A model generated the notes under the pieces. That model ran no database searches, was not told the origin of the DNA, and saw nothing but the letters and a program-made list of their open reading frames with translations. DNA of 64,000 bases. It comes from Thermodesulfobacteriota bacterium (GTDB taxonomy: Bacteria > Desulfobacterota_D > UBA1144 > Nemesobacterales > Nemesobacteraceae). The stretch lies in contig OZ241855.1 of the NCBI GenBank assembly GCA_965202785.1, forward strand, positions 1,312,001 through 1,376,000. The letters run 5' to 3'. Each line of letters starts with the position of its first letter. Position 1 is the first letter of the stretch. The position numbers were made by a program, and so were the translations under genes. Positions 2,333 through 63,266 of the stretch are shown here, one piece after another.

Positions 2333-2380
2333 CCTACATATTGCACTAGGAAGATGCGGGTTCGAGTCCCGCCAACCGCT
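2333..2380 (+). pseudogene. tRNA-like 3' fragment (degenerate anticodon arm, intact T arm)
   Basis: GCGGG TTCGAGT CCCGC CAACCGCT at 2356-2380, preceded by CCTA...TTGCAC TAGG AAGAT. No matching 5' acceptor strand. Confidence 0.5.
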
Positions 2381-3399
2381 TATATGGTTTCTTCGAAAGA
2401 CTCCCCTGGATAGAACTGCTGATACCACTTGCGCATTTTGTTCAGAAGAACAACGTCATCTCCCTTGATCTCCGGAGGGAAGGATTTCTGGTAAATCTTC
2501 CTTTTCCATATCTCCATGTCCTGCTGGTATTGCCAGATCCAGTTCCTAACCACGAAGGAAGGAAGTATTCGCAGTACACGCCGGGGGGCGAACCACCGGA
2601 AATTCACTTGTTGCCGAAGCGCTTCAAGGGGAGTATGCGTCTGGAACATTATTATCTCACCGATTCTCGGAAGGTTGAACTCGAATTTTATAACGCTCCC
2701 GGGACCGAGAAGGGTAACCAGCACCTGGGACTTCACGCTCTCGTAAGCCCGGCCTTTTATCTTAAGCGTTGACTCGACTCTGAGATAGGCAACATGCTCA
2801 AGCGTGTCATCGAGAAACCACGACGGCTTGTGTCGAACTTTTAGCCAGGGCAGCTTTATGTTTATCCAGGGGATGATGCCGGTTCCGTGGATATGAAAGA
2901 AATGACTGAAATCTACGGTGTTCTCGGCAAATTCTATAATGTGCATTTCCGCATCCAGGCTGTACTGACCGCGGTGAACCAGCTGCCGGCTGTCGATCTT
3001 CGGCTCAGCCGGCAGCTGGTACGGCGGCTGCTTGCCTTGCGCTGAATGATAAATCATGACCATGCCGTAGTGCTCGATCACTTCCCAGTGCCGATGAACG
3101 AGCTCGGTGTAGGATGACGGATTGCAGACCCTGCCTTCTCCGTTCAGTTGCCACCCGTGAAAAGGACATTGCAGCAAGTCCCCCTTGACTTCACCATAGG
3201 CCAGGTTTGCTCCCAAGTGCGGGCAGAATGCGTCTAAAGCCGAAAGCCGGCCGGTTGTCCGGCTGCGAAACAGGGCGATTTGCTCCCCCAGGCATTGAAC
3301 ATGCTTTACTTTTCCCGGTTTGATTTCCCTGGATGCCGCTATCCTGTACCAGCCGTCTGGAAACGGCGGCGGGTAGGTCTGTTCTCTCGCTTTATCCAT
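2380..3399 (-). CDS. Rieske non-heme iron oxygenase, Neverland/DAF-36 cholesterol 7-desaturase / KshA-like
   Basis: PPPFPDGWY N-terminus; Rieske CPHLGA...CPFHGW; mononuclear iron motif ENTVDFSHFFHIH; C-terminal DMEIW and RKWYQQFY; RBS AAGGAG. Confidence 0.85.
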   Translation of the reverse strand: MDKAREQTYPPPFPDGWYRIAASREIKPGKVKHVQCLGEQIALFRSRTTGRLSALDAFCPHLGANLAYGEVKGDLLQCPFHGWQLNGEGRVCNPSSYTELVHRHWEVIEHYGMVMIYHSAQGKQPPYQLPAEPKIDSRQLVHRGQYSLDAEMHIIEFAENTVDFSHFFHIHGTGIIPWINIKLPWLKVRHKPSWFLDDTLEHVAYLRVESTLKIKGRAYESVKSQVLVTLLGPGSVIKFEFNLPRIGEIIMFQTHTPLEALRQQVNFRWFAPRRVLRILPSFVVRNWIWQYQQDMEIWKRKIYQKSFPPEIKGDDVVLLNKMRKWYQQFYPGESFEETI

Positions 3400-10907: not shown

Positions 10908-12302
10908 CTATGCCTTTCTGAGGCGCCAGCCGTACATCATACGTCCGTAGAAGTTAAACCACTTCCTCGCTTCGGAGTCCTGAAAGGGATAGTCCGCTCC
11001 AAGTTGTCTTGCTGTAACGAGGCCAGAGACGAAACATGTTTCTTGGCTGTTGATCAGAGTGTGGGCGCCACAGTGCCAGGTTCTTTTCCTGCCCTGAACG
11101 AAACCAAACAGATTAATCAGAAAAGCTGTGTGGAACACATCGTGTACGATATGCTGAAACCACCATTTCTTTACGATTTTTTCTTCGTTGATACGGCTGA
11201 TCGGGTTGTAGGTTACAAGACATGGTTTGTCCGATTTCTTTGCCCAGGGTTGTTGGTTGTGCATGATGTAGGTGATTTCATAGTTATCTGGTCTCACACC
11301 GTACTGTTCAATGTAGTTGCTCCGGGTCTCGAGGGGCTTGACCTCGTTATCCGGGAGGACCGAGGCATCCGAATGGACAACCGTATGGTTATGCAATTCG
11401 CTCTCGTAACGAACCGAAGAGAGAAGGAAGCTCTCCAGGAAGGTCGGGTTGTCGAGAATCATCAATGTCTGGTTCGCGTTGCACGCAAAGACCACATCGT
11501 CAAATGTCTCGGTGATTCCGTTTTCATCTTCAATGACCACGCCGGATGCCCGCCGATACACTTTCTTCACGGGCCTGTTTAGGTATATCTTGTCCCGAAA
11601 TCCGGCTGACATTTCCTCGTATATACGCCGCGTACCCCTATCCCATGTTTGCATTGGTGTTGCGGTCTCTATATCAAAGAACTCCAGATACCGGGCAAAC
11701 AGTGACGCGGGCATGTCGAACACGTTTGTTGCCATCAGGAAATTGACGAACATCGGCTTCAGAACCTTGTACCTGAAGTCTCCTGAGAACCTGCCCCAGT
11801 TGAGAATCGTACCCATGCTGATGTAGTTAAAGGGATTGAGAGCATTGATCAGCAGGGATCTGGAGTGGTTAAGTCGGCCGAACCACTTGAGACGCTTAAG
11901 GAGTTTCTGGAACTTGACAATTTCCGGTTGCAACTGACTCTTGATATCTGAGTCGAAATCGTGTGCATAGATTTCGCCACGGTACTTTACGCTGTAGTTG
12001 AATTTGGTGTCTAACAGATCAATGCCGTGTTGCTGCAAGAACAGCACCATATGATGGTATGCCGATGGAATGCACGCGGTAACGGAAATATCGAACGGGA
12101 TTGAGGTTCCGTTTTCTTGAGGCATGTCGGCTGTTATGGCATTGCCGCCGAGCTGAGACTGTGCTTCAAAAATTCGAAACTCAAACAGATCAGGGTGTCG
12201 GTCCAGAGCCCAAGCCACTCCCAACCCGGATACTCCACCACCGATAATGGCAACTTTTCTCATTTTTCCAGTGTCCTCCGTTTCATTCATAGCCGACGCC
12301 AT
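10908..12302 (-). CDS. FAD/NAD(P)-binding oxidoreductase, COG2907/amine oxidase-like
   Basis: Rossmann motif VAIIGGGVSG; FEAQSQLGGNA; FDDVVFAC; C-terminal QGRKRTWHCGA...SGLVTARQLG. Confidence 0.8.
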   Translation of the reverse strand: MASAMNETEDTGKMRKVAIIGGGVSGLGVAWALDRHPDLFEFRIFEAQSQLGGNAITADMPQENGTSIPFDISVTACIPSAYHHMVLFLQQHGIDLLDTKFNYSVKYRGEIYAHDFDSDIKSQLQPEIVKFQKLLKRLKWFGRLNHSRSLLINALNPFNYISMGTILNWGRFSGDFRYKVLKPMFVNFLMATNVFDMPASLFARYLEFFDIETATPMQTWDRGTRRIYEEMSAGFRDKIYLNRPVKKVYRRASGVVIEDENGITETFDDVVFACNANQTLMILDNPTFLESFLLSSVRYESELHNHTVVHSDASVLPDNEVKPLETRSNYIEQYGVRPDNYEITYIMHNQQPWAKKSDKPCLVTYNPISRINEEKIVKKWWFQHIVHDVFHTAFLINLFGFVQGRKRTWHCGAHTLINSQETCFVSGLVTARQLGADYPFQDSEARKWFNFYGRMMYGWRLRKA

Positions 12303-12435: not shown

Positions 12436-14454
12436 TCAGACGGGCAGTTCGCGTTTCTGTTCGGCGATATGAAACTTGAGCTTCTTCTTCGGCTTCATTG
12501 ATGGAAACGCGGCGATCCCAAGCTTATAGTCTTCGGGGTATACGCGAAGAGTAAAGTAATGCGCTATGATCAACAGGTTAACAGCCATATGAAGTGTCAT
12601 CCACCGGGCGCCGAGGCACATGTGCGAGCCCAGTCCGTATGGGGCGTATCCGGGGTTTTTATGCTCATTGCGAGGCGGCAGGTAGCGGTCGATATCAAAT
12701 GAAAGAGGATCCGGGAAGGAATCTTCCATATAGTGCGGGGCGGTTTGTGCGATGTTTATTCTGGACCCCCGCAGTATTTCATAGCCCTCGACCGTGAACG
12801 TATTCACGACGTCACGCATAATCATTGGAACAACCGGGTACATTCGAAGGCATTCATTGATGAAGCGGTCGGTGACTTCTATGTTGGCGGGAGAGAAGTC
12901 TTTTCCGGTTGGATCACCGTTTGAAAACAGTGCGTCGGCTTCACTTCGAATTTTGTCGTAAAGCTCAGGGTGTGACGCCATGGCATAAAGGGCGAAGTTA
13001 AAGCCGTCACCCAGGTACATGCTGGCAAGCACCACTGCCGATAGAGCGAAACTCAGATTCGACTCGGGCATCAATAGCGGGTAGTTCGCATTGAGGCTTA
13101 GCAGATCATCCACAAAGTTTCGCGGACAACCGGCCCGTTGGGCTGATGTATGGGCACTTTGTACCCGCTCCATCAAAACGCCTATTGCCTTGGCCCTGCG
13201 TTTCATTCCCGGTGTTTTCAGCATGAATTTTGGCAGGATGTTTAAGAGATGGGTGCTGAGTGCCCGCTCCTTGTAAGCAATTATATCGTCCATGATATCC
13301 TGCGTATCAATACTCATGGATAGAGATGACATCTGAGCGTTAATCATTTTTCGGCACAGATCCCTTGCAGGATAGCTTTCGCCCACTTTCCAATTTGCCA
13401 TGTATTCGCGAGCCTTGCTGTAGACCACATCGATCTGTCCTTCCAGTCTCCCACGGGAGTAGGCTGGAGTCATGGTTTTTCGATACCGGAAATGGTCTGC
13501 GCCATCCAGGGCAGGCAATATGCCTACCGCCCCATACACTTTCTCAAAGTCGCCAAAGAGATTCTTGGATGTCAGGTACTTCCGTCCGTGTCGACGTACC
13601 CAGCGGTTTATTTCTGGTCCGGAAAGAAAAATATTTGGCTTTGAAAAAGGAGGAGCGATTTCAAAGACCGGGCCGTACTGCTTTGTCAAATCCGCAAAAA
13701 GTGCCGGAAGGTTCCCGGTACGAGCATGTGGGTTGAGCAGTAGTCGATGAAGTGAAACGCGCGGAATCTTCTTGCTAAGAAGAGAACTTCCAAACAGAGG
13801 ATTATTGATGTTCTGTTCGACCGCGTCCCCCATTGAACGGCCGATTAGGTCCATCCTGCAGATAAGCTCGATCCGCTCTTCCGCCTTTTTGTCGAGCTTA
13901 AACATTAGGGGAAAGATATCGCATGTCTTGATCAGGCAAATGATGATAATATCTCGCGGATCCGGAATGTCGTCTGAAAAGATGTCTTTGCCGACTCTGA
14001 TTCTGATGAACTGACTTAAACTTGCATCTTCATCGTCGCCGTTTGCACTTGCGTATAGTTTGCCAGGTGCCACTGTCCAGAAATCACCCTCGTGATGTTC
14101 CAGAAATTCCAGATTAACCAGGTTCTCTAAGGTCAAATCAGTGATTGTTTCCGCATGGCTGATGAGCTTTTCAATCCAGTATTGGGCGTTGTACTTAACT
14201 GGCTCATCGACGATTTCCTTGAGAATCAGGTCCAGGCTGGGGTTGCCCGTTTCTGTCGGATTCAGAACGTGAAGTGACTCCAAGTCCGTGTCGATACGTG
14301 AAAGGAGAGCGAGTTCCGCGAGTGCCGCGCCGATGACAGCGCAATTTATTCCCCGTCCGGGTATTTGGTAAAAGTAGCCAGTGTCCTCGTTGAGGAGCAT
14401 CAGTATGAACTCGTCGAGCAACCTCAGTGGCTGGTTCTCAACAGGATCATTCAT
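12436..14454 (-). CDS. GPP34 (GOLPH3-like) domain-cytochrome P450 fusion, copy A
   Basis: N-terminal LLDEFILMLL...GAALAELALLSRID...PTETGNPSLD resembles GPP34. P450 K-helix ECLR, meander FDIDRY, heme loop YGLGSHMCLG. Confidence 0.85.
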   Translation of the reverse strand: MNDPVENQPLRLLDEFILMLLNEDTGYFYQIPGRGINCAVIGAALAELALLSRIDTDLESLHVLNPTETGNPSLDLILKEIVDEPVKYNAQYWIEKLISHAETITDLTLENLVNLEFLEHHEGDFWTVAPGKLYASANGDDEDASLSQFIRIRVGKDIFSDDIPDPRDIIIICLIKTCDIFPLMFKLDKKAEERIELICRMDLIGRSMGDAVEQNINNPLFGSSLLSKKIPRVSLHRLLLNPHARTGNLPALFADLTKQYGPVFEIAPPFSKPNIFLSGPEINRWVRRHGRKYLTSKNLFGDFEKVYGAVGILPALDGADHFRYRKTMTPAYSRGRLEGQIDVVYSKAREYMANWKVGESYPARDLCRKMINAQMSSLSMSIDTQDIMDDIIAYKERALSTHLLNILPKFMLKTPGMKRRAKAIGVLMERVQSAHTSAQRAGCPRNFVDDLLSLNANYPLLMPESNLSFALSAVVLASMYLGDGFNFALYAMASHPELYDKIRSEADALFSNGDPTGKDFSPANIEVTDRFINECLRMYPVVPMIMRDVVNTFTVEGYEILRGSRINIAQTAPHYMEDSFPDPLSFDIDRYLPPRNEHKNPGYAPYGLGSHMCLGARWMTLHMAVNLLIIAHYFTLRVYPEDYKLGIAAFPSMKPKKKLKFHIAEQKRELPV

Positions 14455-14809: not shown

Positions 14810-16828
14810 TCAGACGGGCAGTTCGCGTTTCTGTTCGGCGATATGAAATTTAAGCTTCTTGTTCGGCTTCATTGATGGAAACGCGGCGATCCCGAGCTTA
14901 TAGTCTTCTGGGTATACGCGAAGGGTAAAGTAATGCGCTATGATCAACAGGTTGACAGCCATATGAAGTGTCATCCACCGGGCGCCGAGGCACGTGTGCG
15001 GGCCCAGTCCGTATGGGGCGTATCCGGGTTTTCTATGCTCATTGCGAGGCGGCAGGTAGCGGTCGATATCAAATGAAAGAGGATCCGGGAAGGAATCTTC
15101 CATATAGTGCGGGGCGGTCTGTGCGATGTTTATTCTGGACCCCCGCAGTATTTCATAGCCCTCGACCGTGAACGTATTCACGACGTCACGCATAGTCATT
15201 GGAACAACCGGGTACACTCGAAGGCATTCATTGATGAAGCGGTCGGTGACTTCTATGTTGGCGGGAGAGAAGTCTTTTCCGGTTGGATCACCGTTTGAAA
15301 ACAGTGCGTCGGCTTCACTTCGAATTTTGTCGTAAAGCTCAGGGTGTGACGCCATGGCATAAAGGGCGAAGTTAAAGCCGTCACCCAGGTACATGCTGGC
15401 AAGCACCACTGCCGATAGAGCGAAACTCAGATTCGACTCGGGCATCAATAGCGGGTAGTTCGCATTGAGGCTTAGCAGATCATCCACGAAGTTTCGCGGA
15501 CAACCGGCCCGTTGGGCTGATGTATGGACACTTTGTACCCGCTCCATCAAAACGCCTATGGCCTTGGCCCTGCGTTTCATTCCCGGTGTTTTCAGCATGA
15601 ATTTTGGCAGGATGTTTAAGAGATGGGTGCTGAGTGCCCGCTCCTTGTAGGCAATTATATCGTCCATGATATCCTGCGTATCAATACTCATGGATAGAGA
15701 TGACATCTGAGCGTTAATCATTTTTCGGCACAGATCCCTTGCAGGATAGCTTTCGCCCACTTTCCAATTTGCCATGTATTCGCGAGCCTTGCTGTAGACC
15801 ACATCGATCTGTCCTTCCAGTCTCCCGCGGGAGTAGGCTGGAGTCATGGTTTTTCGATACCGGAAATGGTCTGCGCCATCCAGGGCAGGCAATATGCCTA
15901 CCGCCCCATACACTTTCTCAAAGTCGCCAAAGAGATTCTTGGATGTCAGGTACTTCCGTCCGTGTCGACGTACCCAGTGGTTTATTTCTGGTCCGGAAAG
16001 AAAAATATTTGGCTTTGAAAAAGGAGGAGCGATTTCAAAGACCGGGCCGTACTGCTTTGTCAAATCCGCAAAAAGTGCCGGAAGGTTCCCGGTACGAGCA
16101 TGTGGGTTGAGCAGTAGCCGATGAAGTGAAACGCGCGGGATTTTCTTGCTGACATGAGAAGTTGCAAGCAGCGGATTATTGATGTTTTCTTTGACCGCAT
16201 CCGCCATTGAACGGCCGATTAGGTCCATCCTGCAGATAAGCTCGATCCGCTCTTCCGCCTTTTTGTCGAGCTTAAACATTAGGGGAAAGATATCGCATGT
16301 CTCGATCAGGCAAATGATGATAATATCTCGCGGATCCGGAATGTCGTCTGAAAAGATGTCTTTGCCGACTCTGATTCTGATGAACTGACTTAAACTTGCA
16401 TCTTCATCGTCGCCGTTTACATCCGCGTACAGTTTGCCAGCTGCCACTGTCCAGAAATCACCCTGGTGATGTTCCAGAATTCCCATATTAACCAGATTCT
16501 CTAAGGTCAAATCAGTGATTGTTTCCGCATGGCTGATGAGCTTTTCAATCCAGTATTGGGCGTTGTGCTTAACTGGCTCATCGACGATTTCCTTGAGAAT
16601 TATGTCCAAGCTGGGGTTGCCCGTTTCTGTTGGGTCCAGGAGGAGAAGAGACTCGACATCTGTGTCGATACGAGAAAGCAGAGAGAGTTCCGCGAGTGCC
16701 GCACCGATAATAGCGCAGTTCATTTTGTGGGCGGCTATTTGGTAGAAGTAACCGCTCTCCTCGTCGAGGAGCATCAGTATGAACTCGTCGAGCAAGCTCA
16801 GTGGCTGGCTCTCAATAGGATCATTCAT
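14810..16828 (-). CDS. GPP34 (GOLPH3-like) domain-cytochrome P450 fusion, copy B
   Basis: Tandem paralog of 12436-14454 with the same length (672 aa); heme loop YGLGPHTCLG. Confidence 0.85.
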   Translation of the reverse strand: MNDPIESQPLSLLDEFILMLLDEESGYFYQIAAHKMNCAIIGAALAELSLLSRIDTDVESLLLLDPTETGNPSLDIILKEIVDEPVKHNAQYWIEKLISHAETITDLTLENLVNMGILEHHQGDFWTVAAGKLYADVNGDDEDASLSQFIRIRVGKDIFSDDIPDPRDIIIICLIETCDIFPLMFKLDKKAEERIELICRMDLIGRSMADAVKENINNPLLATSHVSKKIPRVSLHRLLLNPHARTGNLPALFADLTKQYGPVFEIAPPFSKPNIFLSGPEINHWVRRHGRKYLTSKNLFGDFEKVYGAVGILPALDGADHFRYRKTMTPAYSRGRLEGQIDVVYSKAREYMANWKVGESYPARDLCRKMINAQMSSLSMSIDTQDIMDDIIAYKERALSTHLLNILPKFMLKTPGMKRRAKAIGVLMERVQSVHTSAQRAGCPRNFVDDLLSLNANYPLLMPESNLSFALSAVVLASMYLGDGFNFALYAMASHPELYDKIRSEADALFSNGDPTGKDFSPANIEVTDRFINECLRVYPVVPMTMRDVVNTFTVEGYEILRGSRINIAQTAPHYMEDSFPDPLSFDIDRYLPPRNEHRKPGYAPYGLGPHTCLGARWMTLHMAVNLLIIAHYFTLRVYPEDYKLGIAAFPSMKPNKKLKFHIAEQKRELPV

Positions 16829-16957: not shown

Positions 16958-17179
16958 TTGAATAAGACCGGAGTTTAGACTCATGAGTCTTTGAATTTAG
17001 ACTGAAGAGATACCGAAGACTTGAATTTGCGAAAAATTCCAAACACTACCCTTCTATATAACATGATATATAATCTATATGCTACGAATATTATTTAAAT
17101 TCCAGTGTCGTGTGTTATTGGTCTTTTCTGTGACCGTATCCATAAGTGACCGCTTCACTGCAGGAAGGGGGATTCTGTT

Positions 17180-18319
17180 ATGATTGAATGGCTTGGTATT
17201 AGCCACCTTTTTGAGCTTTCCCAGAGGGAAGCGATTGCGGGGTTTTTCACCCCGCTGGTGATTTTTGCCGTGTTTTTCCTGGCGCAGATTATACTGCCTG
17301 GAAGATGGGTTCCTGGCTACGTCATCAATCCGGAGACCGGCGAGCCCCGCAAGTATAGGCTGAACGGTCTTTTGGTATTCGCGGTTGCGCTGATCGTGTG
17401 GGCTTTCGAGCTTACCGGCATGCCGCGTGAGTGGTTCTACCGGTCCTCGATCTATGCCGTGGTTGGCGGAACAGTTTTTACCACAATCTTTGCGATCATA
17501 GCGGTCTTCAGTCAGCCGCAAGGCAAGATAAAGAACCCGCTTCTGGCGCTTTGGGACGGGCGGGCGCAGGAGATGTCGTTCTTCAACGAGCGCTTCGATG
17601 TGAAGATGTATTTCTATGTTGTCGGCGGGACGATGCTGGCGCTCAACGCCTTGTCCGGAGCCGCATACAACTATGAACTCTTTGGCGAGAACTACAATCC
17701 GGGCGTTTTCCTGTATGCGGCATTCTACACATACTACATACTGGATTACTTTATCTTTGAGCGCGTCCAGCTATATACCTACGATCTGATCCATGAGGGC
17801 ATCGGCTTCAAAATGTTCTGGGGAGGCCTCGTGATCTACGGGTGGCTGTTTATCCTCCCGTTGTGGGGCATGGCTGCTTACCCGTCTCCCGGATTCTCGT
17901 CGGCGTGGACGTATGTCTGGCTAATCGGAACGCCTGTGCTGTTCCTGTTCGGGTGGGGCATCTCGCGCGGCGCTAACATGCAGAAATACACATTCAAGCG
18001 ATGGCCCGACCGCAAATTTCTCGGGATCATCGAGCCTGAGTACATCCAGGCCGGCGACCGCAAGATCCTGTGCAGTGGCTTCTGGGGTGCCGCTCGCCAC
18101 TTCAACTACCTGGGCGAAGGCTTCCTTGGTCTTTCAATTGCCCTGGCATTCGGCTACTTCACTAATCTCTGGGCGTGGACCTACTTTATCTTCGTCGTAA
18201 CGTTTTTTACCTTCCGTCAACGTTTTGACGATGCATACTGTGCCGAGAAATACGGCGCCGAAAAGTGGGCGGAGTATCAGGCACGGGTGAAATACCGGAT
18301 TTTTCCCGGCATTTATTGA
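17180..18319 (+). CDS. ERG4/ERG24-family membrane sterol reductase (Delta14, Delta7 or Delta24(28) type)
   Basis: Multiple TM helices; family signatures LCSGFWGAARHFNYLGE and DDAYCAEKYG...WAEYQARVKYRIFPGIY; N-terminal YRLNG. Confidence 0.9.
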   Translation: MIEWLGISHLFELSQREAIAGFFTPLVIFAVFFLAQIILPGRWVPGYVINPETGEPRKYRLNGLLVFAVALIVWAFELTGMPREWFYRSSIYAVVGGTVFTTIFAIIAVFSQPQGKIKNPLLALWDGRAQEMSFFNERFDVKMYFYVVGGTMLALNALSGAAYNYELFGENYNPGVFLYAAFYTYYILDYFIFERVQLYTYDLIHEGIGFKMFWGGLVIYGWLFILPLWGMAAYPSPGFSSAWTYVWLIGTPVLFLFGWGISRGANMQKYTFKRWPDRKFLGIIEPEYIQAGDRKILCSGFWGAARHFNYLGEGFLGLSIALAFGYFTNLWAWTYFIFVVTFFTFRQRFDDAYCAEKYGAEKWAEYQARVKYRIFPGIY

Positions 18320-18403
18320 GGAGATTTCCTGCGAGTCCATACAGGGTGATTACGATCGCCGCCTGCCCGCATTGTGCTTGAGTTGTACAGATTACTCTAC
18401 GGG

Positions 18404-19405
18404 TCAACCCGGTTTGCGCGCCTTGTGGTAGTACATGGGCGTAACAATTCCCAGACGTCCTGCGGCCAGGAGGCTGTCGGCCACGACATTAATAATTTTC
18501 CGTGCCTCGGACGACCCCTTGGGTACGGCGCGCACGCCTTCCAGAACGGGCAGAACCGCCGCGGCGATTTTGCGGCCAAGGGCCGTTCTCGAGAAACTTC
18601 TCAGATTCAGGCTGCCCCCTTCCAGCGGTCCATACCACGGCGTCTTGGGGTCGGCGTCAAGAGCGCGGTCATGCGCCTCGACAAGTTCGAAACCGACTGC
18701 CCGCAGACTGTCGTCTACCTCCGTGAATGAAGCGATTTCCGGAAGAGCGGAGACGTATTCGTTTATTTCCTTGAGTTCCCGGTGCTTGGGGTTTCCGCCG
18801 TCGTAAAGCGGGGTCGTGCACACGTCGTAGCCGACGAAGACCGCACCGGGGCGCAATACGCGGAATATCTCGGCAAAGGCTGCGGTCTTATCCGGCGCAT
18901 GACACAAGGCCTCGATATGGTAGGCCGCGTCGAAACTTCCGTCTTCCGCCGGTATATTCAGGAAATCGCCGTGCAGGACGCTGCAGAGATCGTCCAGGCC
19001 AGCCTCGCTGTTATACGCAGAGCACTTCCCGAGCTGATATTTGTTGATGTTGAGGCCCACGATTGAAGCGCCGAACTTTCTTGCGAGGGAGCGCTGGGGT
19101 CCACCCACGCCGCACCCGACATCCAGCACCTTCATACCCGGTCTCAATCCAATGGCTTCGCCCAGAAAATACTCATGGTTGGCAATGGATTCCTCGAAAG
19201 ACACCCCCGGCTCCATCAGTGCGAAGTGAATCGACTGTCCCCATCCACGCTCGCAAAATTCGGTAATGAGATTATAAAACGCCGTTACCGTGTTGGCGTA
19301 CTCTTCCTTGCTCATCCCCTGGCTTCTGCGGTACTTCGATAGCCTTTCCACAATATCATCCCGCTGAACTGCATTTGAAGCTGAGTTATGGGAGTCATCT
19401 GCCAC
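18404..19405 (-). CDS. Sterol 24-C-methyltransferase (ERG6/SMT family), variant active site
   Basis: SAM motif VLDVGCGVGGP; Region I FCERGWGQSIHFA; Region III IEALCHAP; C-terminal GIVTPMY. Confidence 0.9.
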   Translation of the reverse strand: MADDSHNSASNAVQRDDIVERLSKYRRSQGMSKEEYANTVTAFYNLITEFCERGWGQSIHFALMEPGVSFEESIANHEYFLGEAIGLRPGMKVLDVGCGVGGPQRSLARKFGASIVGLNINKYQLGKCSAYNSEAGLDDLCSVLHGDFLNIPAEDGSFDAAYHIEALCHAPDKTAAFAEIFRVLRPGAVFVGYDVCTTPLYDGGNPKHRELKEINEYVSALPEIASFTEVDDSLRAVGFELVEAHDRALDADPKTPWYGPLEGGSLNLRSFSRTALGRKIAAAVLPVLEGVRAVPKGSSEARKIINVVADSLLAAGRLGIVTPMYYHKARKPG

Positions 19406-19636
19406 TTGCGTTTTCCTCTGTAGAATCTTCTATATGAAAGATTCCTTATCACTTTCTGATTTTTCTTCTAAGTTTTGGGAAACCATCTTATCCACTCTAC
19501 ATAAGGGGGTCAAAAACATTTTTTGGATCGCCAAGCCCGCTTCTTTCTGAACCTCAATAAAACCAGATTTGAATATAATTCCGGTTCAAGACTTGGAACG
19601 CGGGAATTTAGGTTACTATATTCCTAAGTAAAAGGC

Positions 19637-20998
19637 TTGCGCACTAGCATCATGTTATCTGAAAAGACCCAGCGCCGAATTCTCAAAAATCCGTTCACCG
19701 CACCCGGTGGGGGCGGCAAGAGCGTTCCGGCTTCACTTCTCCCAGCGATTTTAGCGGTGGTGCTGTGGGTGCTTGTTTCAGTGCTCCCGACCGTAGCGTA
19801 CCCGGCCGGCTTCACCGACGAGGTTGATATCTCCGGGCGCCTCTCGACTGAGGCTTGGCTGTATCCCCAGAGTGCCGAGTATCCTGACCAGCGTTCATAT
19901 GCTGGCGGGCTTGCACTTGAGACAACGTTCTATGTTGAGAGCGAGGAAGGCACAAGCATAACGGTGACTCCCTTTTTGCGGTACGATGCCGGGGACCCGG
20001 ACCGCACGTACGGTGATTTCCGTGAGGCCTATCTGCTTATGTACGGCGATATTGGCAACGGCGAATGGGAATTGCGTCTGGGCATCGATCGGGTCTTTTG
20101 GGGCGTCACGGAACTGCGTTCCCTGGTGGATATCATCAATCAGACCGATGTTATTGAACACCCGAACGAAAAGATAAAGATGGGTCAGCCAATGGCCCAT
20201 CTCACCTGGTCGGGTGACTGGGGAGCACTGGAATTTTTCGCGACGACATGGCACCGTGCGCGCACCTATCCGGGCCCGCGTGGTCGCCAGCGGTATGAGT
20301 TCATTGTGGACCAGGATATGGTTTCATACGAATCCGGCGCGAAAAAGTGGAATATTGATCTTGCCAGCAGGTACAGCGGCTTATTAGGGCCGCTCGAGAT
20401 TGGTCTCAGCGTGTTCAACGGTACGAACCGAGAGCCCACACTCTTGCCGATATTTCTCGACTCCAGATTGGTTCTGGCCCCACATTACGAGAAGATTCGC
20501 CAATTCGGTGTGGATGCCCAGCTTACAAGGGGGTCCCTGCTGCTCAAGCTGGAAGCAATCTACCGCGCTGGCGCGAGGAACAGCAGGTACATTCAACACC
20601 TCAATACTTTAGAGGAAGAGGACTACACGGCTTTTATCTTGGGTAGCGAGTACACGCTCTATTCCATATTGGGTTCGAACTCTGATCTGGTCCTGTTTGC
20701 CGAATGGGCTTACGACGGACGTGGCCGGTGGGCAACCAATGCATTCGAGAACGACCTGTTCATTGCCGCGCGTCTCGGGTTGAACGATCCGCATGGCACC
20801 GAATTTGTCATCAGCGTTTTAGGTTCCCTCAACAAGAGCAGTCGCGTCCTCGCAGGCGAGTTCAAACGTCGCCTTTCTTCGGACAACTGGCTTCTGCATA
20901 TTGAGACCTCAGCTTTTCTGGATATTGACGAAGACGACTTCATATACTACGTGCGGCGCGACAGCTACGTAAAGATCAATCTAGCCTACAGTTTCTGA
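19637..20998 (+). CDS. Putative outer-membrane beta-barrel protein, partner of the LolA-like and MMPL proteins; start uncertain
   Basis: Signal-like N-terminus; amphipathic beta strands; C-terminal YVKINLAYSF ending in Phe (BAM signal); FREAY, RVFWG and LVDIINQ motifs. Confidence 0.7.
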   Translation: MRTSIMLSEKTQRRILKNPFTAPGGGGKSVPASLLPAILAVVLWVLVSVLPTVAYPAGFTDEVDISGRLSTEAWLYPQSAEYPDQRSYAGGLALETTFYVESEEGTSITVTPFLRYDAGDPDRTYGDFREAYLLMYGDIGNGEWELRLGIDRVFWGVTELRSLVDIINQTDVIEHPNEKIKMGQPMAHLTWSGDWGALEFFATTWHRARTYPGPRGRQRYEFIVDQDMVSYESGAKKWNIDLASRYSGLLGPLEIGLSVFNGTNREPTLLPIFLDSRLVLAPHYEKIRQFGVDAQLTRGSLLLKLEAIYRAGARNSRYIQHLNTLEEEDYTAFILGSEYTLYSILGSNSDLVLFAEWAYDGRGRWATNAFENDLFIAARLGLNDPHGTEFVISVLGSLNKSSRVLAGEFKRRLSSDNWLLHIETSAFLDIDEDDFIYYVRRDSYVKINLAYSF

Positions 20999-21272
20999 AT
21001 CGAACCAGAACCTGAAAGCAACTCGACAGTGACTTTTTAGTACTTGCCTTGTCAGAGTTGCCGAGACGCGAAACGTGGGTCAATTGAGGCGGTGTCCGAA
21101 TACGGATTGAGGTTTTTCATGAGAGTGGCAGGAAATATGTTGTCATAGGGCGGAACGGTTCTGTCTATGTGTGGTCTGCTTTGTCAGGTAAATAATCACG
21201 TAAAGATGCGCAAGTGATACCGGCAATTTTATCCGGACTATCGGGCCAATGACTTGGCCGAGGGAAACACGA

Positions 21273-22274
21273 ATGGCGGCTAACTTCCATAACCCAATTT
21301 CGAAAGCAATTCGGCCGGAGGACACGGCGGAGACGCTGTCGAAGTACCGCAGAAGCCAGGGCCGGGGCAAGAAAGAGTACGCTCGCATGGTGACGGCGTT
21401 TTACGACCTCGTTACCGACTTTTATGAGTATGGATGGGGACAGTCGTTTCACTTCGCACCGATGAAGGTAGGGGAGTCTTTCGAGGAATCCATTGTCGGC
21501 CACGAGCATTTTCTCGGCGAAGCCATTGGATTGAGACCGGGTATGAAGGTGCTGGATGTCGGATGCGGCGTGGGAGGACCCCAGCGCTACCTCGCAAGAA
21601 AGTTCGGCGCTTCGATCGTGGGCCTAAACATCAGCGAATATCAGATCGGGAAGTGCTCTGCGTATAACAGCAAGGCTGGCCTGGACGATCTCTGCGGCGT
21701 CCTGCACGGCGATTTCCTGAATATACCGGCGGAAGACGGAAGCTTCGACGCGGCCTACCATATCGAGGCCATGCCTCATGCGCCCGATAAAGCCGCCGCC
21801 TATGCCGAGATATTCCGCGTATTGCGCCCCGGTGGGGTCTTCGCCGGCTACGACTGGTGCATGACCCCGCTTTACGACGGCGCAAACCCTGAGCATCGGG
21901 AACTCAAGAAAGGAATCGAATATGGCAACGCTCTTCCCGAAATCGCCTCATTCACGGAGGTAGACGACAGTCTGCGGGCAGTCGGTTTCGAACTTGTCGA
22001 GGCGCATGACCGCGCTCTTGACGCCGACCCCAAGACGCCGTGGTATCGACCGCTGGAAGGGGGCAGTCTGAAGCTGAGGAGTTTGCCGAGAACGGCCCTT
22101 GGCCGCAAAATTACCTCGGTAACCCTGAGCGTTCTGGAAAGCTTACGCGCCGTACCCAAGGGGTCGTCCGAGGTACGGAAAATTCTCAGTATCGCGGCCG
22201 ACAGTTGCGTGGCCGCAGGACGTCTTGGGATTTTTACGCCCATGTACTACCACAAGGCGCGCAAACCGGATTGA
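21273..22274 (+). CDS. Sterol 24-C-methyltransferase (ERG6/SMT family), canonical Region I
   Basis: FYDLVTDFYEYGWGQSFHFA; VLDVGCGVGGP; IEAMPHAP; GYDWC; IEYGNALP; GIFTPMY. Start 21273 gives 333 aa, equal to its paralog. Confidence 0.95.
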   Translation: MAANFHNPISKAIRPEDTAETLSKYRRSQGRGKKEYARMVTAFYDLVTDFYEYGWGQSFHFAPMKVGESFEESIVGHEHFLGEAIGLRPGMKVLDVGCGVGGPQRYLARKFGASIVGLNISEYQIGKCSAYNSKAGLDDLCGVLHGDFLNIPAEDGSFDAAYHIEAMPHAPDKAAAYAEIFRVLRPGGVFAGYDWCMTPLYDGANPEHRELKKGIEYGNALPEIASFTEVDDSLRAVGFELVEAHDRALDADPKTPWYRPLEGGSLKLRSLPRTALGRKITSVTLSVLESLRAVPKGSSEVRKILSIAADSCVAAGRLGIFTPMYYHKARKPD

Positions 22275-22531
22275 CCCGTACGGTAATCGGGTCCAACGCA
22301 AGCACGATGCGGGCCTGCGGCGACTGTGTCGGTAAGCTGCCAGCCGCGGTCCAATTCGCTCGGTTGCGGTCCTACCTATTCTCCAACGTGTGCCGCTCGA
22401 TATGGAGCAGCACCAAGCCTATATGGAATCGATGTGGAATCGCACAATCAGGCCATTGCTTTATCATGCCCCCATACACCAGATTTGACTATATCTCCGG
22501 TTTTGTTTATATCCATTAACAGGAGGAACCA

Positions 22532-23353
22532 ATGATTCGGTCTTCGATCCCACGCATAATACTTACGGTCCTCGGAAGCTTTCTTGCAATTTGTTTCTGG
22601 CCGGCTGAGTCGTATTCTGATCTGCTGAGTGGTACCGCTGAGGAAGTGGGTCTCAAGGTTGCAACCGAAGCTCGTGAGAACCAGAAGGGTTTCGGCAATT
22701 TCACCGCAAACCTGACCATGACGCTACGTAACAAGCAGGGGAAGGAAACCCAGCGCTCACTCCGTCTCAAACTCATCGAAATCCCGGAGGACGGCGATCG
22801 AACTCTGTTTGTGTTTGACCACCCAAAGGATGTCAAAGGGACCGCTTTTCTCGTCCATGCCCATAAGGAGGGGCCAGACCAACAGTGGCTCTATCTTCCC
22901 GCACTGAAGCGGGTGAAAGGCATCAGCGCCTCGAAACAATCCGGCTCTTTCATGGGCAGCGAATTCTCCTATGAGGACATGGGAGCGGTCGAGGTCGGGA
23001 AATTTACTCACCGGTTCCTTCGTGAAGAGCCCTGCGGTGATCTCAAGTGCCTGGTTCTGGAGCGTATCCCGAAAAGTCAGGATTCCGGGTACTCACGCCA
23101 AGTGGTTTGGCTCGACCGGGAGGAACTTCGAACAATTCAGGTCCACTACTTCGACCGCAGGAATGAGCACCTCAAGACTATGGTCGTAGAGGGCTATGCA
23201 AAATACCTCGATCGGTTTTGGCGGAGCAGCACTATAACGATGACAAACCTGCTGACTGGCAAGAGTACCGTGCTGCTATGGTCAGACTACAAGTTTGGGA
23301 CTGACCTGGACACCAAGGACTTTACCCGAACAGCGCTAAAGCGAATACGGTAG
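22532..23353 (+). CDS. Outer membrane lipoprotein-sorting (LolA-like) periplasmic protein
   Basis: Signal peptide; PKDVKGTAFL; QWLYLPALKRVK; SFMGSEFSYEDM; RBS AGGAGG. Confidence 0.88.
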   Translation: MIRSSIPRIILTVLGSFLAICFWPAESYSDLLSGTAEEVGLKVATEARENQKGFGNFTANLTMTLRNKQGKETQRSLRLKLIEIPEDGDRTLFVFDHPKDVKGTAFLVHAHKEGPDQQWLYLPALKRVKGISASKQSGSFMGSEFSYEDMGAVEVGKFTHRFLREEPCGDLKCLVLERIPKSQDSGYSRQVVWLDREELRTIQVHYFDRRNEHLKTMVVEGYAKYLDRFWRSSTITMTNLLTGKSTVLLWSDYKFGTDLDTKDFTRTALKRIR

Positions 23354-23574
23354 AGAGGTTTCTAGACTGCCTCGCCCGGTTCACCACCCGCCGGAGTGAC
23401 TGCAACTGAAATTGGGTGAGTATACTACGCAACGAACGGAGAGCTTCCGTAAGTTGGATTGATCAAGCCCATGAAAAACGGCGGAATACCGATGTCCTCG
23501 AACACTCCTACAACCCATGACCCAGAAAGTGGGGATGTGTCCCTTAGTCTTGAGCGCAAGCCAAATTCCCTGTT

Positions 23575-25956
23575 TTGGCAATAATGAAATTGCTGAGTGA
23601 TATAGAGTCACGGTTGGGCAACTGGGTCATCAAGCTTCGGTGGCCGATCATCGTTGCTGCCATTGTCTTAACCGGGATTGCAACAAGCGGCACGTTGTTG
23701 CTTGAGTTCTCAACCGACCACCGCGTCTACTTTTCCGAAAACAATCCTCAGCTTCTGGCGTACCAGGAGATGGAGGACATGTACGGCAAGAGCGACAACG
23801 TCTTTTTTGCCATCGTGCCGGAGGACCGAGATGCCACATCGTCTCTCGCCCTTGAAGCTACGGAGTGGCTCACCGAAAAGGCTTGGCAGACCCCATTCGC
23901 AAGCCGTGTCGATTCCGTTACCAACTTTCAGCATACCAAAGCCGACGGCGATGAGGTATTGGTGCGTGAACTGGTGGACGAGAGTGCCTACAGCGATGCC
24001 GAAGAGCGGTCACGGATTCGCGAAATTGCCTTGGCGGAACCGGTTCTCGCGGGGCGCCTGCTGGCACGCGACGGCGGTGTTTCGGGAATCAACGTCACAT
24101 TGCAGTTGCCGGGCGAGGACCAAATGCGCGAAGGTGCAGAGGTTGCTGAACACTCACGCAAACTTGCGAATGAATTTCGAGAACGTTTCCCCGGCATTGA
24201 CGTACTGTTGTCTGGAATGGTGATTTTTAACCAGGCCTTTATGGAGGTGTCTCTGGACGATCTTAGGACGCTCATCCCGGTGAGTTTCTTGGCAATGGCG
24301 TTCATGCTGCTGCTTCTGACGCGGGGATTTTCAGGAACGTTCGCAATAATGCTCGTCGTGGTGATGTCGGTAATGACCGCCGTGGGTCTCGGGGGCTGGG
24401 CAGGACTTCCAATGACGTCGCCTTCGGCGGTCTCCCCGGTCGTCGTGCTGACAGTGGCTATTGCCAACTGCGTCCACATCTATTCCACCATTGTCAGCTA
24501 TATGCACGATGCAGCGTCCGGCACGTCTGAGGATCGCGGCAGCAGAACTAGGCAGGATGCGATTGTCGAGTCGATTCGGGTGAACCTTCAGCCGGTCTTC
24601 CTGTCGAGTCTGACTACCACGCTTGGCTTTTTGAGCTTGAACTTCTCCGATTCGCCCCCTTTTCGTCATTTGGGCATCTTCGTTGCATTTGGGGTCGGTG
24701 CGGCATTCGTGCTTTCCGTAACTTTTCTGCCGGCGTTGCTCTCGCTGCTGCCGGTTCGGGTACGCGCATCCCTGTCCCGAGAGAATTCTCTGATAGAAAT
24801 GTTCGGCAGGTTCGTTGTACGCCGAAGCCGCCAACTGCTCTGGGGCTCCGGGCTGATCGTGGTAGTGCTCGTGGCGTCAATTTTCCAGAACGAGCTAAAC
24901 GACGTTTTCCTCCACTATTTTGACGAGAGCGTCGAATTCCGAAAAGACTCTGAATTCATCGTGGATAACCTCACCGGTTTGTATGCCATGGAGTACTCGC
25001 TCCCATCGCGCTCCCCGGGTGGGATCAGCGACCCGGCGTATCTCTCAGATGTCGAAGCGTTTGCCGAGTGGTACAGGGGGCAGCCTGAAACGATACACGT
25101 AAACGTCATCACCGATACCTTCCGACGGCTAAACAAGAGCATGAACGGGGGCGATCCGGACTATTACCGGCTACCCACAGACCGGGAACTTGCCGCGCAG
25201 TATCTGCTTCTCTACGAAATCTCTCTACCCTATGGCCTTGATCTGAACAACCAGATCGCCGTCGACAAGTCAGCCACCCGGATGATAGTGAGAACGCGGA
25301 CGCTCTCTTCAAACGAAGTGATCGCACTTGATCAGCGCGCGCAGCAATGGCTCGCAGGCCACGGGCCGAATATTTCCGGTCCGGTGAGTGCCGGTACCAC
25401 GTTGATGTTTGCCAATCTCGGTCGGCGAAATATCATCTCCATGCTTGCTGGAACCACGCTCGCCCTCGTTGGAATTTCTTTCATCCTCATCTTCGCACTG
25501 CGATCATGGCGACTCGGAATAACGAGCATGGTCCCAAACCTGATTCCCGGGGCATTGGGCTTCGGTATATGGGGTTTGACAGTCGGAGAAGTGGGAGTAT
25601 CACTTTCGATGGTAACGGCCATGACATTGGGTATCGTGGTCGACGATACTGTCCACTTTCTCAGCAGGTACAAGCGGAACCGGCACGAACTCGGTTGCAC
25701 TTCTCCTGAAGCGGTACTGGTTTCCTTCCGAACCGTGGGTCAGGCACTGCTTACGACCTCGCTTGTGCTAGTGGCAGGCTTTGTTGTGGTGAGTTTTTCC
25801 AATTTCGAACTCAATTCAGCGATGGGCAAGCTCACAGCGCTTGTAATCACTTTGGCCCTGATGGCCGATTTCCTTCTCCTGCCGCCGCTTCTCATGAAGT
25901 TCGACGCGAATGCTGACGGCGCCTGCCTTCTTTCGGAAATGGTAACCAAGGCGTGA
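23575..25956 (+). CDS. MMPL/RND-family lipid transporter
   Basis: Two repeats of TM-periplasmic loop-5TM; PVFLSSLTTTLGFLSL; GIVVDDTVHF. Start may be ATG 23584. Confidence 0.92.
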   Translation: MAIMKLLSDIESRLGNWVIKLRWPIIVAAIVLTGIATSGTLLLEFSTDHRVYFSENNPQLLAYQEMEDMYGKSDNVFFAIVPEDRDATSSLALEATEWLTEKAWQTPFASRVDSVTNFQHTKADGDEVLVRELVDESAYSDAEERSRIREIALAEPVLAGRLLARDGGVSGINVTLQLPGEDQMREGAEVAEHSRKLANEFRERFPGIDVLLSGMVIFNQAFMEVSLDDLRTLIPVSFLAMAFMLLLLTRGFSGTFAIMLVVVMSVMTAVGLGGWAGLPMTSPSAVSPVVVLTVAIANCVHIYSTIVSYMHDAASGTSEDRGSRTRQDAIVESIRVNLQPVFLSSLTTTLGFLSLNFSDSPPFRHLGIFVAFGVGAAFVLSVTFLPALLSLLPVRVRASLSRENSLIEMFGRFVVRRSRQLLWGSGLIVVVLVASIFQNELNDVFLHYFDESVEFRKDSEFIVDNLTGLYAMEYSLPSRSPGGISDPAYLSDVEAFAEWYRGQPETIHVNVITDTFRRLNKSMNGGDPDYYRLPTDRELAAQYLLLYEISLPYGLDLNNQIAVDKSATRMIVRTRTLSSNEVIALDQRAQQWLAGHGPNISGPVSAGTTLMFANLGRRNIISMLAGTTLALVGISFILIFALRSWRLGITSMVPNLIPGALGFGIWGLTVGEVGVSLSMVTAMTLGIVVDDTVHFLSRYKRNRHELGCTSPEAVLVSFRTVGQALLTTSLVLVAGFVVVSFSNFELNSAMGKLTALVITLALMADFLLLPPLLMKFDANADGACLLSEMVTKA

Positions 25957-62420: not shown

Positions 62421-63098
62421 CTACAAAGATACAATCAGCAGACGGTCGTTGCACTTTTGTAACGGACGTGCATTGTGTCCGAACATCCGCTCAAAGCTTG
62501 CGACCTGTTCTGCACTCACCTCAATTACGTCTGGAAAAATGAACCAGTGTACTCCCTCGCTGCAAGGAGGGGTGGTGAGCGACCCCTTGTAATGGAAGTA
62601 GCCGGTGGTCGCGGGCAGTATCGCGGATGCATCCACTGTCGTGTCCGCAACATCAACTTCTATTCCTGCCTCGGCCGGTACGTTGTCAAACACCGCATCC
62701 AAGGCATGGTTTTGTGCGCCTATTTCCATCATAACGCCAACCACTGCCAGTACGCCTGCCGGGTTTTTGTGTACGAAATGTGCCTCCATTGCCGCGTGCG
62801 AACCATCAAAAGCGTGCTCGCTCGGGACGTGAAAGTGAAACTGCAACAGTTCGTAAATTTCACCTGCTGCGGTCAGCGTGCTGCCGGGTGCGTAATTTAC
62901 CTGGAGGGTGTGTCCGGTGTTTAGAATCTTCAGAGAAGAGGGCTTGTAATCAAATTTCAGCGCCGGTCCCTTGACGGGAAAGGCACCGGTGATGTCAATC
63001 GGTGACTGCATGCGCCCGATGGTGCAGGTCGCGTAATCCGGGGAGAGCGAGCCCCAGTTGTCGGGACCTTCGGCCCCGGTATACCCCCAGCAAGTCAA
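62421..63098 (-). CDS. Alpha-class carbonic anhydrase, no signal peptide
   Basis: WGY..GPDNW; QSPIDI; QFHFH..SEH; EAHFVH; GSLTTPPCSEGV. Likely TTG start at 63098 after GGAGG. Confidence 0.93.
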   Translation of the reverse strand: MTCWGYTGAEGPDNWGSLSPDYATCTIGRMQSPIDITGAFPVKGPALKFDYKPSSLKILNTGHTLQVNYAPGSTLTAAGEIYELLQFHFHVPSEHAFDGSHAAMEAHFVHKNPAGVLAVVGVMMEIGAQNHALDAVFDNVPAEAGIEVDVADTTVDASAILPATTGYFHYKGSLTTPPCSEGVHWFIFPDVIEVSAEQVASFERMFGHNARPLQKCNDRLLIVSL

Positions 63099-63266
63099 CT
63101 TAGTCCTCCATGACGCATTCCCGTATGGGTTTTCGTGAGTGCGGATATCACTAGCATAATACGCGGTTTTATGGCCTGCACTGCAAACCTGTTTTCTGAG
63201 CAGATGGGGCCGATAATTTGCAAAGACAGCGTAACCCATGCCTCAAAATGTTTCAAACAAACCTAA

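Follow-up and report, generated by a model that had tools for sequence, protein, structure and literature searches.

Why would a bacterium that seems unable to make sterols keep three genes for sterol methyltransferases (SMTs), one of them with a rebuilt sterol-binding region? The question is raised by a 64,000-nucleotide stretch of a Thermodesulfobacteriota genome, here called the window (contig OZ241855.1, positions 1,312,001 to 1,376,000 of the forward strand). The source genome, G000, is a single contig of 1,643,464 bases and is 96% complete. Two of the SMT genes lie in the window in opposite orientations; SMT-B, like the third copy outside the window, is canonical, and SMT-A carries the rebuilt region. 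From comparisons of sequence, we lean with moderate confidence toward the view that SMT-A is a working, selectively maintained S-adenosylmethionine (SAM)-dependent sterol side-chain methyltransferase whose specificity has changed, in a symbiont that remodels sterols that it acquires. SMT-A has replaced the pocket residues at positions 81, 83, 89, 225, 245, 248, 249 and 357 (yeast numbering), and the replacements are fixed in a clade under purifying selection despite recurrent gene conversion with canonical paralogues.

A gene pair and a third copy

The pair, the repeat that it forms and the third copy are as follows.

18404..19405, minus strand: SMT-A, an Erg6-type sterol methyltransferase with a remodelled sterol-binding region (open reading frame, Pfam, residue states, tree, dN/dS, AlphaFold2)
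21273..22274, plus strand: SMT-B, a canonical sterol methyltransferase of 333 amino acids (open reading frame, Pfam, 25/25 conserved residues, identical to database protein P0016)
18390..19418, no strand assigned: inverted-repeat arm 1 (SMT-A gene), 1029 nucleotides, 87% complementary to arm 2, with 1841 nucleotides between the arms
21260..22288, no strand assigned: inverted-repeat arm 2 (SMT-B gene), 87% complementary to arm 1
G000:C1:1265110-1266126 (L024 13110-14126), minus strand: SMT-C, the third paralogue, 47 kb upstream and outside the window, 93% identical to SMT-B

An earlier note on this DNA had described two SMT paralogues of 333 amino acids with long near-identical stretches. The description is accurate: the proteins have the same length and align gaplessly with 261 of 332 residues identical (79%, with 86% positives, by BLASTP), the genes share 878 of 1002 bases (87.6%), and the homology of the inverted repeat reaches no more than about 14 bases beyond the coding sequences. 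As that note also said, the variant gene is intact (SMT-A is a complete 333-residue open reading frame with a GTG start codon) and its SAM motif is unchanged (LDVGCGVGGP in both proteins). The SMT-B frame extends over 21249..22274 (plus strand), which gives 341 amino acids from the upstream ATG at 21249 and 333 from the ATG at 21273, the start used in the database gene call. The number of paralogues has to be corrected from two to three, SMT-C having the same motifs as SMT-B and sitting directly downstream of a Rieske/KshA_C oxygenase gene.

All three proteins belong to the SMT family by Pfam. Methyltransf_11 scores 76.2 bits in SMT-A and 76.4 bits in SMT-B (cut-off 21.2), and Sterol_MT_C scores 52.6 and 70.3 bits, respectively (cut-off 21.7), so that both proteins are above both cut-offs; the scores of SMT-C are 72.5 and 75.0 bits. 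NCBIfam has no SMT model, and all matches there are far under the cut-offs. An ESM Atlas look-up confirmed the family assignment and gave nothing further.

A rebuilt sterol pocket

How different are the two pockets? We mapped yeast numbering on SMT-B through the motifs of a recent preprint (Brown & Welander 2025, 10.64898/2025.12.19.695621), namely 84GWGxxFHF91, 125DxGxGxxGP133, E195, G217, Y223, G333, L341, G352, F357 and P359. The offset from SMT-B to yeast is 30 up to G268 (SMT-B residue 238), 29 at W286 and 36 in the C-terminal domain, where the numbering is set by the identity and spacing of G333, L341, G352, F357 and P359 in SMT-B. In these terms SMT-A has the states Y81C, Y83R, F89I, P198C, G218A, W225V, I245N, G248V, N249S, L341I and F357V.

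The claim that one copy is canonical and the other has a rebuilt sterol-binding region stands. The preprint reports 25 residues that are conserved in all functional SMTs and treats any deviation as the mark of a poor activity candidate; SMT-B and SMT-C hold 25 of the 25, and SMT-A, compared with the enzymes functional in vitro, holds 22 and deviates at F89I, L341I and F357V. The Region II motif DxGxGxxGP and residues H90, D125, G129, P133 and E195, which the preprint lists as essential in yeast, are kept in all three paralogues and in every tabulated A-type orthologue. The preprint further reports that mutation at positions 81, 83 and 249 alters the number of methylations, and residues 81 and 249 lie within 5 Å of docked 24-methylenecholesterol in its authors' models. 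At these three positions SMT-A has C81, R83 and S249, and SMT-B and SMT-C have Y81, Y83 and N249.

How unusual these states are can be seen from a full scan of 1.84 billion representatives, among which 103 full-length SMT-family proteins were alignable. Position 81 is Tyr or Phe in 93 of these 103 diverse representatives, position 89 is Phe in 90 and position 225 is Trp in 87, and the SMT-A states Cys81, Val225, Asn245 and Val248 occur in none of the 103. When the 72 differences between SMT-A and SMT-B are polarised against 84 more distant homologues, 34 are derived in A, 6 are derived in B and 32 are ambiguous; in columns at least 90% conserved in those homologues, 13 changes are A-derived and 2 are B-derived. 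In a relative-rate test, changes unique to A outnumber those unique to B for 14 of the 15 reference proteins, with P<0.05 for 13. Judged by these sequence comparisons, SMT-A is the derived copy.

The earlier note had listed motif pairs and held that the differences concentrate in catalytic motifs. Every pair is present as written, the first being FYNLITEFCERGWGQSIHF in SMT-A and FYDLVTDFYEYGWGQSFHF in SMT-B, and the others (A/B) being IEALCH/IEAMPH, YDVC/YDWC, NEYVSALP/IEYGNALP and GIVTP/GIFTP. The concentration holds for otherwise conserved columns but not overall: the densest stretches of difference are residues 1-60 and 271-330, which include the poorly conserved N-terminal tail, where the pLDDT (predicted local distance difference test) score of the structure model is low. 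In the IEALCH/IEAMPH pair, SMT-A holds the family-wide residue (at position 198, Cys in 79/103 and Pro in 3/103), so that Cys198 of SMT-A is the family norm and Pro198 of SMT-B the local oddity in this alignment.

A conserved lineage under gene conversion

Is SMT-A a decaying duplicate? A-type genes (83-94% identical) occur in 18 of the 36 genomes of this Candidatus Dadabacteria genus. The relatives' records are titled Candidatus Dadabacteria or Thermodesulfobacteriota metagenome-assembled genomes (MAGs), and the named database sequences that fall in the A cluster bear no annotation beyond [quoted passage not shown]. When 74 proteins are placed in a maximum-likelihood tree, the A-type sequences group in one clade of 25 rows (Shimodaira-Hasegawa-like approximate likelihood-ratio support 99), which nests among intermediates that have C81 and I89 but lack the later changes. 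The 15 A-type genes of genome loci share the states C81, I89, C198, V225 and S249 without exception, as do both metagenome loci. The ratio of nonsynonymous to synonymous substitution rates (dN/dS) against SMT-A of G000 is 0.21-0.40 across 13 A-clade orthologues, and it is 0.23-0.28 among close B-type genes. Thus the dN/dS check that had been proposed for the variant speaks against neutral evolution, with low ratios in the A clade and derived states that are fixed; on these substitution patterns SMT-A is a conserved lineage and not a decaying duplicate.

The pairwise A/B dN/dS is 0.68, which is inflated and misleading because gene conversion lowers dS (0.18 for the A/B pair, 0.43 when A is set against a deeper A-type orthologue). 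Identity between A and B forms a mosaic along the gene, and a permutation test of shared runs of polymorphic sites locates one tract in the pair of G000, at gene nucleotides 678-774 (P=0.0003).

18632..18728, minus strand: conversion tract in SMT-A, gene nucleotides 678-774, identical to SMT-B at 53 consecutive polymorphic sites
21950..22046, plus strand: matching conversion tract in SMT-B, gene nucleotides 678-774, from the same permutation test

In the same genome, SMT-B and SMT-C are identical over gene nucleotides 377-738, a run whose length was reached in 0 of 3000 permutations, and the A/B pair of locus L008 has a run with P=0.008. A/B pairs taken across genomes gave no significant run in this test (P=0.19 and 0.15). 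Since runs are significant within genomes and not between them, the paralogues of one genome exchange sequence.

What, then, stays different? A comparison of the A clade (14 genes) with the B clade (4 genes) yields 17 replacement differences that are fixed and no fixed silent one, set against 254 replacement and 302 silent polymorphic changes (Fisher P=2e-6). The 14 fixed codons (SMT-B numbering) are G32S, M39T, D45N, Y51C, Y53R, F59I and P168C in the first half and W195V, I215N, G218V, N219S, V301A, A308V and F321V in the second, which is essentially the motif list of the earlier note. We read this pattern as the work of selection, which would keep the fixed positions distinct as the remainder of the gene is homogenised by conversion.

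No sterol synthesis and a probable sponge host

Where would the substrates come from? In G000 there is no match to PF13243 or PF13249 (cyclase), PF08491 (squalene epoxidase) or PF00494 (squalene/phytoene synthase), and no match over cut-off for ERG3/ERG25-type hydroxylases. A cyclase motif scan of G000 found no cyclase; a "DDCTAE" motif match was rejected as one, the open reading frame being judged by eye to be AMP-binding and acetyl-CoA-synthetase-like. The PF13243 cyclase domain was found in 0 of the 36 genomes of the genus and in 0 of 81 sampled genomes of the class. The absence from the sampled class disagrees with passages of Hoshino & Gaucher (2021) that credit Dadabacteria with a eukaryote-like steroid pathway; their genomes may lie outside the present sample. 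Given that squalene synthase, squalene epoxidase and oxidosqualene cyclase are all missing, the SMTs probably act on imported sterols, and the simplest reading of this gene content would be that the bacteria modify sterols taken from outside.

The bacterium is probably a sponge symbiont, to judge from related sequences. Dadabacteria MAGs have been reported from the sponge Petrosia ficiformis, and an RNA library labelled sponge metagenome (X16) holds contigs that are 88-97% like the locus; runs with that label whose share was below 0.2 do not enter this argument. With it, four RNA libraries from three studies (the others being labelled coral, X21, and marine, X22-X23) have contigs over the reductase and outer-membrane genes, the LolA-like gene and orthologues of SMT-A. 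The contigs that carry SMT-A orthologues are 92-97% identical to SMT-A; for example, one over 18415-18745 differs at 17 of 331 letters and one over 18312-19036 at 60 of 725. For SMT-B the cover is uninformative: one piece of 331 nucleotides has 88% identity, which is as far from B as A is, and stretches that lack cover carry no weight as evidence.

The gene cluster around SMT-A

The genes around the pair, in the order of the window, are as follows.

2..1759, minus strand: second MMPL transporter, running off the window start
2380..3399, minus strand: Rieske/KshA_C oxygenase, one of three in the island (likeness to SdmA 59 bits against a cut-off of 600)
10908..12302, minus strand: flavin amine-oxidase-family oxidoreductase at the cluster end (Pfam)
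12436..14454, minus strand: fusion of GPP34 and cytochrome P450, copy a, 672 amino acids, 93.5% identical to copy b
14810..16828, minus strand: fusion of GPP34 and cytochrome P450, copy b, 672 amino acids (Pfam)
17180..18319, plus strand: ERG4/ERG24-family sterol reductase, convergent with SMT-A (Pfam 110 bits; present in 13/17 related loci)
19637..20998, plus strand: putative outer-membrane protein between SMT-A and SMT-B (DUF1302 19.8 bits, below the cut-off of 23.2)
22532..23353, plus strand: LolA-like periplasmic or lipoprotein-sorting-type protein (Pfam LolA_like 201 bits; synteny)
23575..25956, plus strand: MMPL/RND (resistance-nodulation-division) transporter with a sterol-sensing-domain match (Pfam MMPL and Sterol-sensing; NCBIfam HAE3/HpnN-like below cut-offs)
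G000:C1:1310684-1311325, plus strand, and G000:C1:1266152-1266736, minus strand: Rieske/KshA_C oxygenases two and three

Together with the SMTs, these genes make up a sterol island of about 70 kb, with three SMTs, two ERG4/24 reductases, two P450s, three Rieske/KshA_C oxygenases and two MMPL transporters. In both fusions the GPP34 (Golgi phosphoprotein 3) domain is N-terminal to the P450, and the two are the genome's only P450 matches (in 1.64 Mb). The reductase beside SMT-A is the more divergent of the genome's two, scoring 115 bits against 224 to the solved Delta14-sterol reductase 4quv. All three oxygenases resemble the C-4 demethylase SdmA only weakly, at 33-59 bits where the cut-off is 600. 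A promoter and terminator scan of 17000-23600 was uninformative, with 7 and 7 sites found where 4.7 and 7.0 were expected.

Across 17 related loci the order is conserved: an amine-oxidase-family flavoprotein, one or two GPP34-P450 fusions, an ERG4/24 reductase and an SMT, followed by the DUF1302-like outer-membrane protein, the LolA-like protein, the MMPL/RND transporter and an acyl-CoA dehydrogenase. The amine-oxidase-family gene is kept in 16 of the 17 (the other locus reaches its contig end first), and the putative outer-membrane gene adjoins an SMT in 16 of the 17. The SMT of the conserved slot always adjoins the reductase/P450 side and is A-type or an A-type intermediate. Only G000, L008 and, with a 70% copy, L017 have a B-type gene between the outer-membrane and LolA-like genes, and L013 has a 63-residue SMT remnant there. 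Because the slot holds the A-type or an intermediate and the B-type is rare, the variant is the resident of the cluster and the canonical gene an occasional member.

Some further features of the window and its relatives deserve mention. The DUF1302-like, LolA-like and MMPL/RND genes (19637-20998, 22532-23353 and 23575-25956) accompany the SMT in nearly all relatives, and passages of Hoshino & Gaucher (2021) state that "three uncharacterized genes" often accompany a bacterial SMT. At some distance from the cluster lie tandem ammonium transporter genes (55035-56429 and 56647-58041, both plus strand) that are 90.1% identical, a recent duplication in a reduced genome, and a eukaryotic-type (alpha) carbonic anhydrase gene (62421-63239, minus strand; Pfam Carb_anhydrase 141 bits).

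Further SMT types among the relatives

Of the 18 A-bearing genomes, 16 hold one or more additional SMT homologues. The partners are B-type (73-79% identical to A) in 5 genomes and a 39-50% identical type in 15; A stands alone in two genomes, G010, an assembly of 70 contigs, and G047, a single contig that is 97% complete. Among the A-bearing genomes, G000 alone has no partners other than B-type ones, and tblastn found no remnants of D- or E-type SMTs in it. An origin of SMT-A as a recent offshoot of SMT-B was considered and discarded, A being the resident of the cluster and a B-type partner being present in only 5 of the 18 genomes.

The 39-50% identical genes fall into two types, D and E, which are SMTs by Pfam and are themselves non-canonical.

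L029, L030, L032 and L016 11195-12226: D-type SMT genes, with pocket S78, M81, F83 or W83, L89, Q223, M225 and I249
L027, L028 and L031: E-type SMT genes, with pocket I81, Y83 and C225, and G249 in 2/3 of the genes read

By these residues, SMT pockets of four different builds (A, B, D and E) are found in the genus. The Gly249 of the two E-type genes is the residue reported necessary for 24-isopropyl formation. Two of the genus's SMT genes are disrupted: the SMT at L023 10001-10986 (G018) aligns to SMT-B as two pieces that overlap (residues 1-323 and 281-332), a pattern that we read as a frameshift near the C-terminus, and the D-type SMT at G024:C25:18775-19683 has one in-frame TAG.

What might SMT-A do?

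With its pocket rebuilt, SMT-A would be expected to accept a different sterol, or to release a different product, than the canonical C-24 methyltransferases SMT-B and SMT-C. We posit that the SMTs would act on host-derived sterols together with the ERG4/24 reductase, the P450s and the Rieske oxygenases, and that the RND, LolA-like and outer-membrane proteins would form the transport part of this system. For the canonical copies the published residue rules allow a forecast. According to the preprint, C30 products require Gly249, Ser, Asn, Ala or Thr at that position still permit C29 (Ser and Asn did so in the Chlamydiae enzyme that was tested), and Phe at 81 or 83 raises the C30 yield. None of SMT-A, SMT-B and SMT-C has the combination of propylating SMTs (Gly249 with Phe at 81 and/or 83), and by these rules SMT-B and SMT-C should methylate, and perhaps ethylate, but not propylate.

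Several points weigh against our proposal. By the 25-residue rule, SMT-A should perform poorly as a C-24 methyltransferase on standard substrates, and Region I aromatic-to-aliphatic mutants of eukaryotic SMTs lose functions, as the preprint summarises. The AlphaFold2 model of SMT-A (mean pLDDT 83.6, predicted template-modelling score 0.84) is low in confidence in the loop of Region I (residues 51-60, mean pLDDT 60), as it also is at residues 1-13. The test of fixed against polymorphic differences is liberal, since an excess (10:2 against 118:156, P=0.007) also arose when, as a control, the A clade itself was split; its sequences come from different species, and gene conversion breaks its assumptions. 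Host sterol uptake, although probable, is argued solely from genes that are absent. Finally, presence in RNA libraries lends weak support to transcription of SMT-A and does not prove it, as such libraries can contain DNA.

Could the paralogues instead act in sequence? The earlier note had proposed that they do. In such a scheme SMT-B or SMT-C would carry out the first C-24 methylation, and SMT-A, its pocket enlarged, would extend the side chain to C29/C30 or beyond. This scheme is possible, and we think it unlikely. It agrees with the further SMT homologues of most A-bearing genomes, with the loss from SMT-A of five bulky aromatics at, or close to, positions for which contact with the side chain has been shown or modelled, and with Ser249, a residue with which the Chlamydiae enzyme could still form C29. 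The published mutants point the other way: in the preprint's summary, the yeast enzyme with Ala, Ile, Leu or Val in place of Y81 made no 24-ethyl sterols (only that with Phe did), and changing Region I aromatics of soybean SMT1 to Leu abolished the second methylation. The Gly249 needed for C30 is absent from all three paralogues, SMT-A having Ser and the others Asn. Nor do two paralogues call for a sequential pathway, given the report that single bacterial SMTs suffice for all three methylations (Brown et al. 2023, PMC10070321), so that copy number is no predictor of chain length. Moreover, the usual partner of SMT-A is a 40-50% identical non-canonical SMT rather than the B-type, and G047 has SMT-A alone.

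Might SMT-A have lost sterol methyltransferase activity altogether? It would then be a protein that binds sterol or SAM (regulatory or chaperone-like), or it would methylate a non-sterol lipid. The preprint reports that 7 of 11 SMTs inactive on desmosterol or 24-methylenecholesterol deviated from the 25 residues, as SMT-A does, and the Sterol_MT_C score of SMT-A is lower than that of SMT-B. Its authors also caution that inactive SMTs may simply need other substrates. The SAM motif and the five essential residues are intact in every A-type gene examined, purifying selection on the A-type is as strong as on B-type genes, and SMT-A is the conserved SMT of a cluster that also has a sterol reductase and a transporter with a sterol-sensing domain. 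We regard a loss of activity as improbable, to about the same degree as the sequential scheme.

It is very unlikely that SMT-A and SMT-B are redundant C-24 methyltransferases separated by neutral lineage noise after duplication or transfer, a view that could point to their shared length and fold, to the pairwise dN/dS of 0.68 if taken as relaxed constraint and to other recent duplicates in the genome (the P450s and ammonium transporters), since the changes strike columns 86-100% conserved in the 84 homologues and include states (C81, V225, N245, V248) that none of the diverse representatives has, the derived states are fixed across the A clade with every fixed difference a replacement, they persist beside conversion tracts that homogenise the rest of the gene, and the 0.68 is itself a product of lowered dS.

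Returning to a working enzyme of changed specificity, can its chemistry be guessed? We speculate, and as a long shot, that the A-type could be an SMT with new regiochemistry on host sponge sterols. It might, for instance, methylate Delta25 sterols like (epi)codisterol at C-26/C-27, to give aplysterol-type or 26-methylstigmastane-type side chains, or it might quench the carbocation in another way. As part of the same conjecture, a genus without a cyclase and with four SMT pockets might supply part of the unconventional sterol diversity of sponges. According to the passages of Brown et al. (PMC10070321) on this point, no 26-SMT has been identified in sponges or bacteria and the enzymes of C-26 methylation are unknown; the literature listed from 2018 onwards contains no paper reporting a C-26 SMT.

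Why the locus matters

Steranes with alkylated side chains (24-isopropylcholestane and 26-methylstigmastane) are used as the oldest chemical evidence for animals, and their sponge versus bacterial origin is disputed. The locus offers clonable candidates, a canonical and a naturally remodelled SMT in one genome, and SMT-A is a candidate for one of the enzymes, yet to be found, that give sponges their unusual sterols; being conserved in a genus that is unable to make sterols, the remodelled type would probably work on sterols of the host. The 25-residue rule predicts that SMT-A is inactive, and evolution keeps it. This conflict is the point of interest: if SMT-A is active on other substrates, the rules need revision, and the enzymes of sponge side chains may become identifiable from sequence.

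Comparison with known systems

The closest parallel is with the SMTs of sponge symbionts and environmental bacteria (PMC10070321; 10.64898/2025.12.19.695621), which belong to the same Methyltransf_11 and Sterol_MT_C family, come from uncultured bacteria and, as here, show more than one SMT per contig or genome and clustering with sterol genes. SMT-B and SMT-C resemble the tested bacterial SMTs that methylate or ethylate (25/25 residues, Y81, N249), whereas the A-type differs from the tested enzymes in having small or aliphatic residues in place of Y81, F89, W225 and F357. The published bacterial clusters include a cyclase, and this genus lacks the cyclase domain (0/36). The main texts of the two sources (supplements excluded) do not mention natural variants like the A-type, nor do they name the contigs of the two A-type metagenome loci.

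A second parallel is Chl_SMT, a propylating enzyme from a Chlamydiae MAG of drinking water, which is host-associated and lacks other sterol-synthesis genes; it is proposed in PMC10070321 that this SMT may act on host-acquired sterols, a likeness to the present genome. Its pocket differs: Chl_SMT combines Gly249 with Phe83 and makes 24-isopropyl sterols, where SMT-A has S249, C81 and R83 and SMT-B and SMT-C have N249, Y81 and Y83. In Saccharomyces cerevisiae Erg6 and in plant SMT1, the same positions (81, 83, 89, 218 and 223-225) set one versus two methylations. Those laboratory mutants are single aromatic-to-aliphatic swaps that lose function, while the A-type is a natural, multi-site and long-conserved combination.

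On the level of folds, a sequence search found no solved structure of an Erg6-type SMT, and the nearest solved folds to the SMT-A model are small-molecule methyltransferases (Foldseek E values of 1e-19 to 1e-15; template-modelling scores, by query, of 0.57-0.66): TleD (5gm1/5gm2), the geranyl diphosphate C-methyltransferase (4f84-4f86) and RebM/AtmM/MitM. TleD and the geranyl diphosphate enzyme methylate a C=C bond, as does the SMT family, although all of these proteins share just 14-26% sequence identity with SMT-A. Finally, the putative transport genes recall BstA, BstB and BstC of Methylococcus capsulatus, reported in PMC10942540 as an HpnN-related inner-membrane RND protein with periplasmic and outer-membrane parts beside sterol genes, an arrangement like the putative one here. 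The partners are of other kinds: in BstABC they are PhnD-type and TatT-type, and in the SMT cluster they are the LolA_like and DUF1302-like neighbours known from the genes at the locus.

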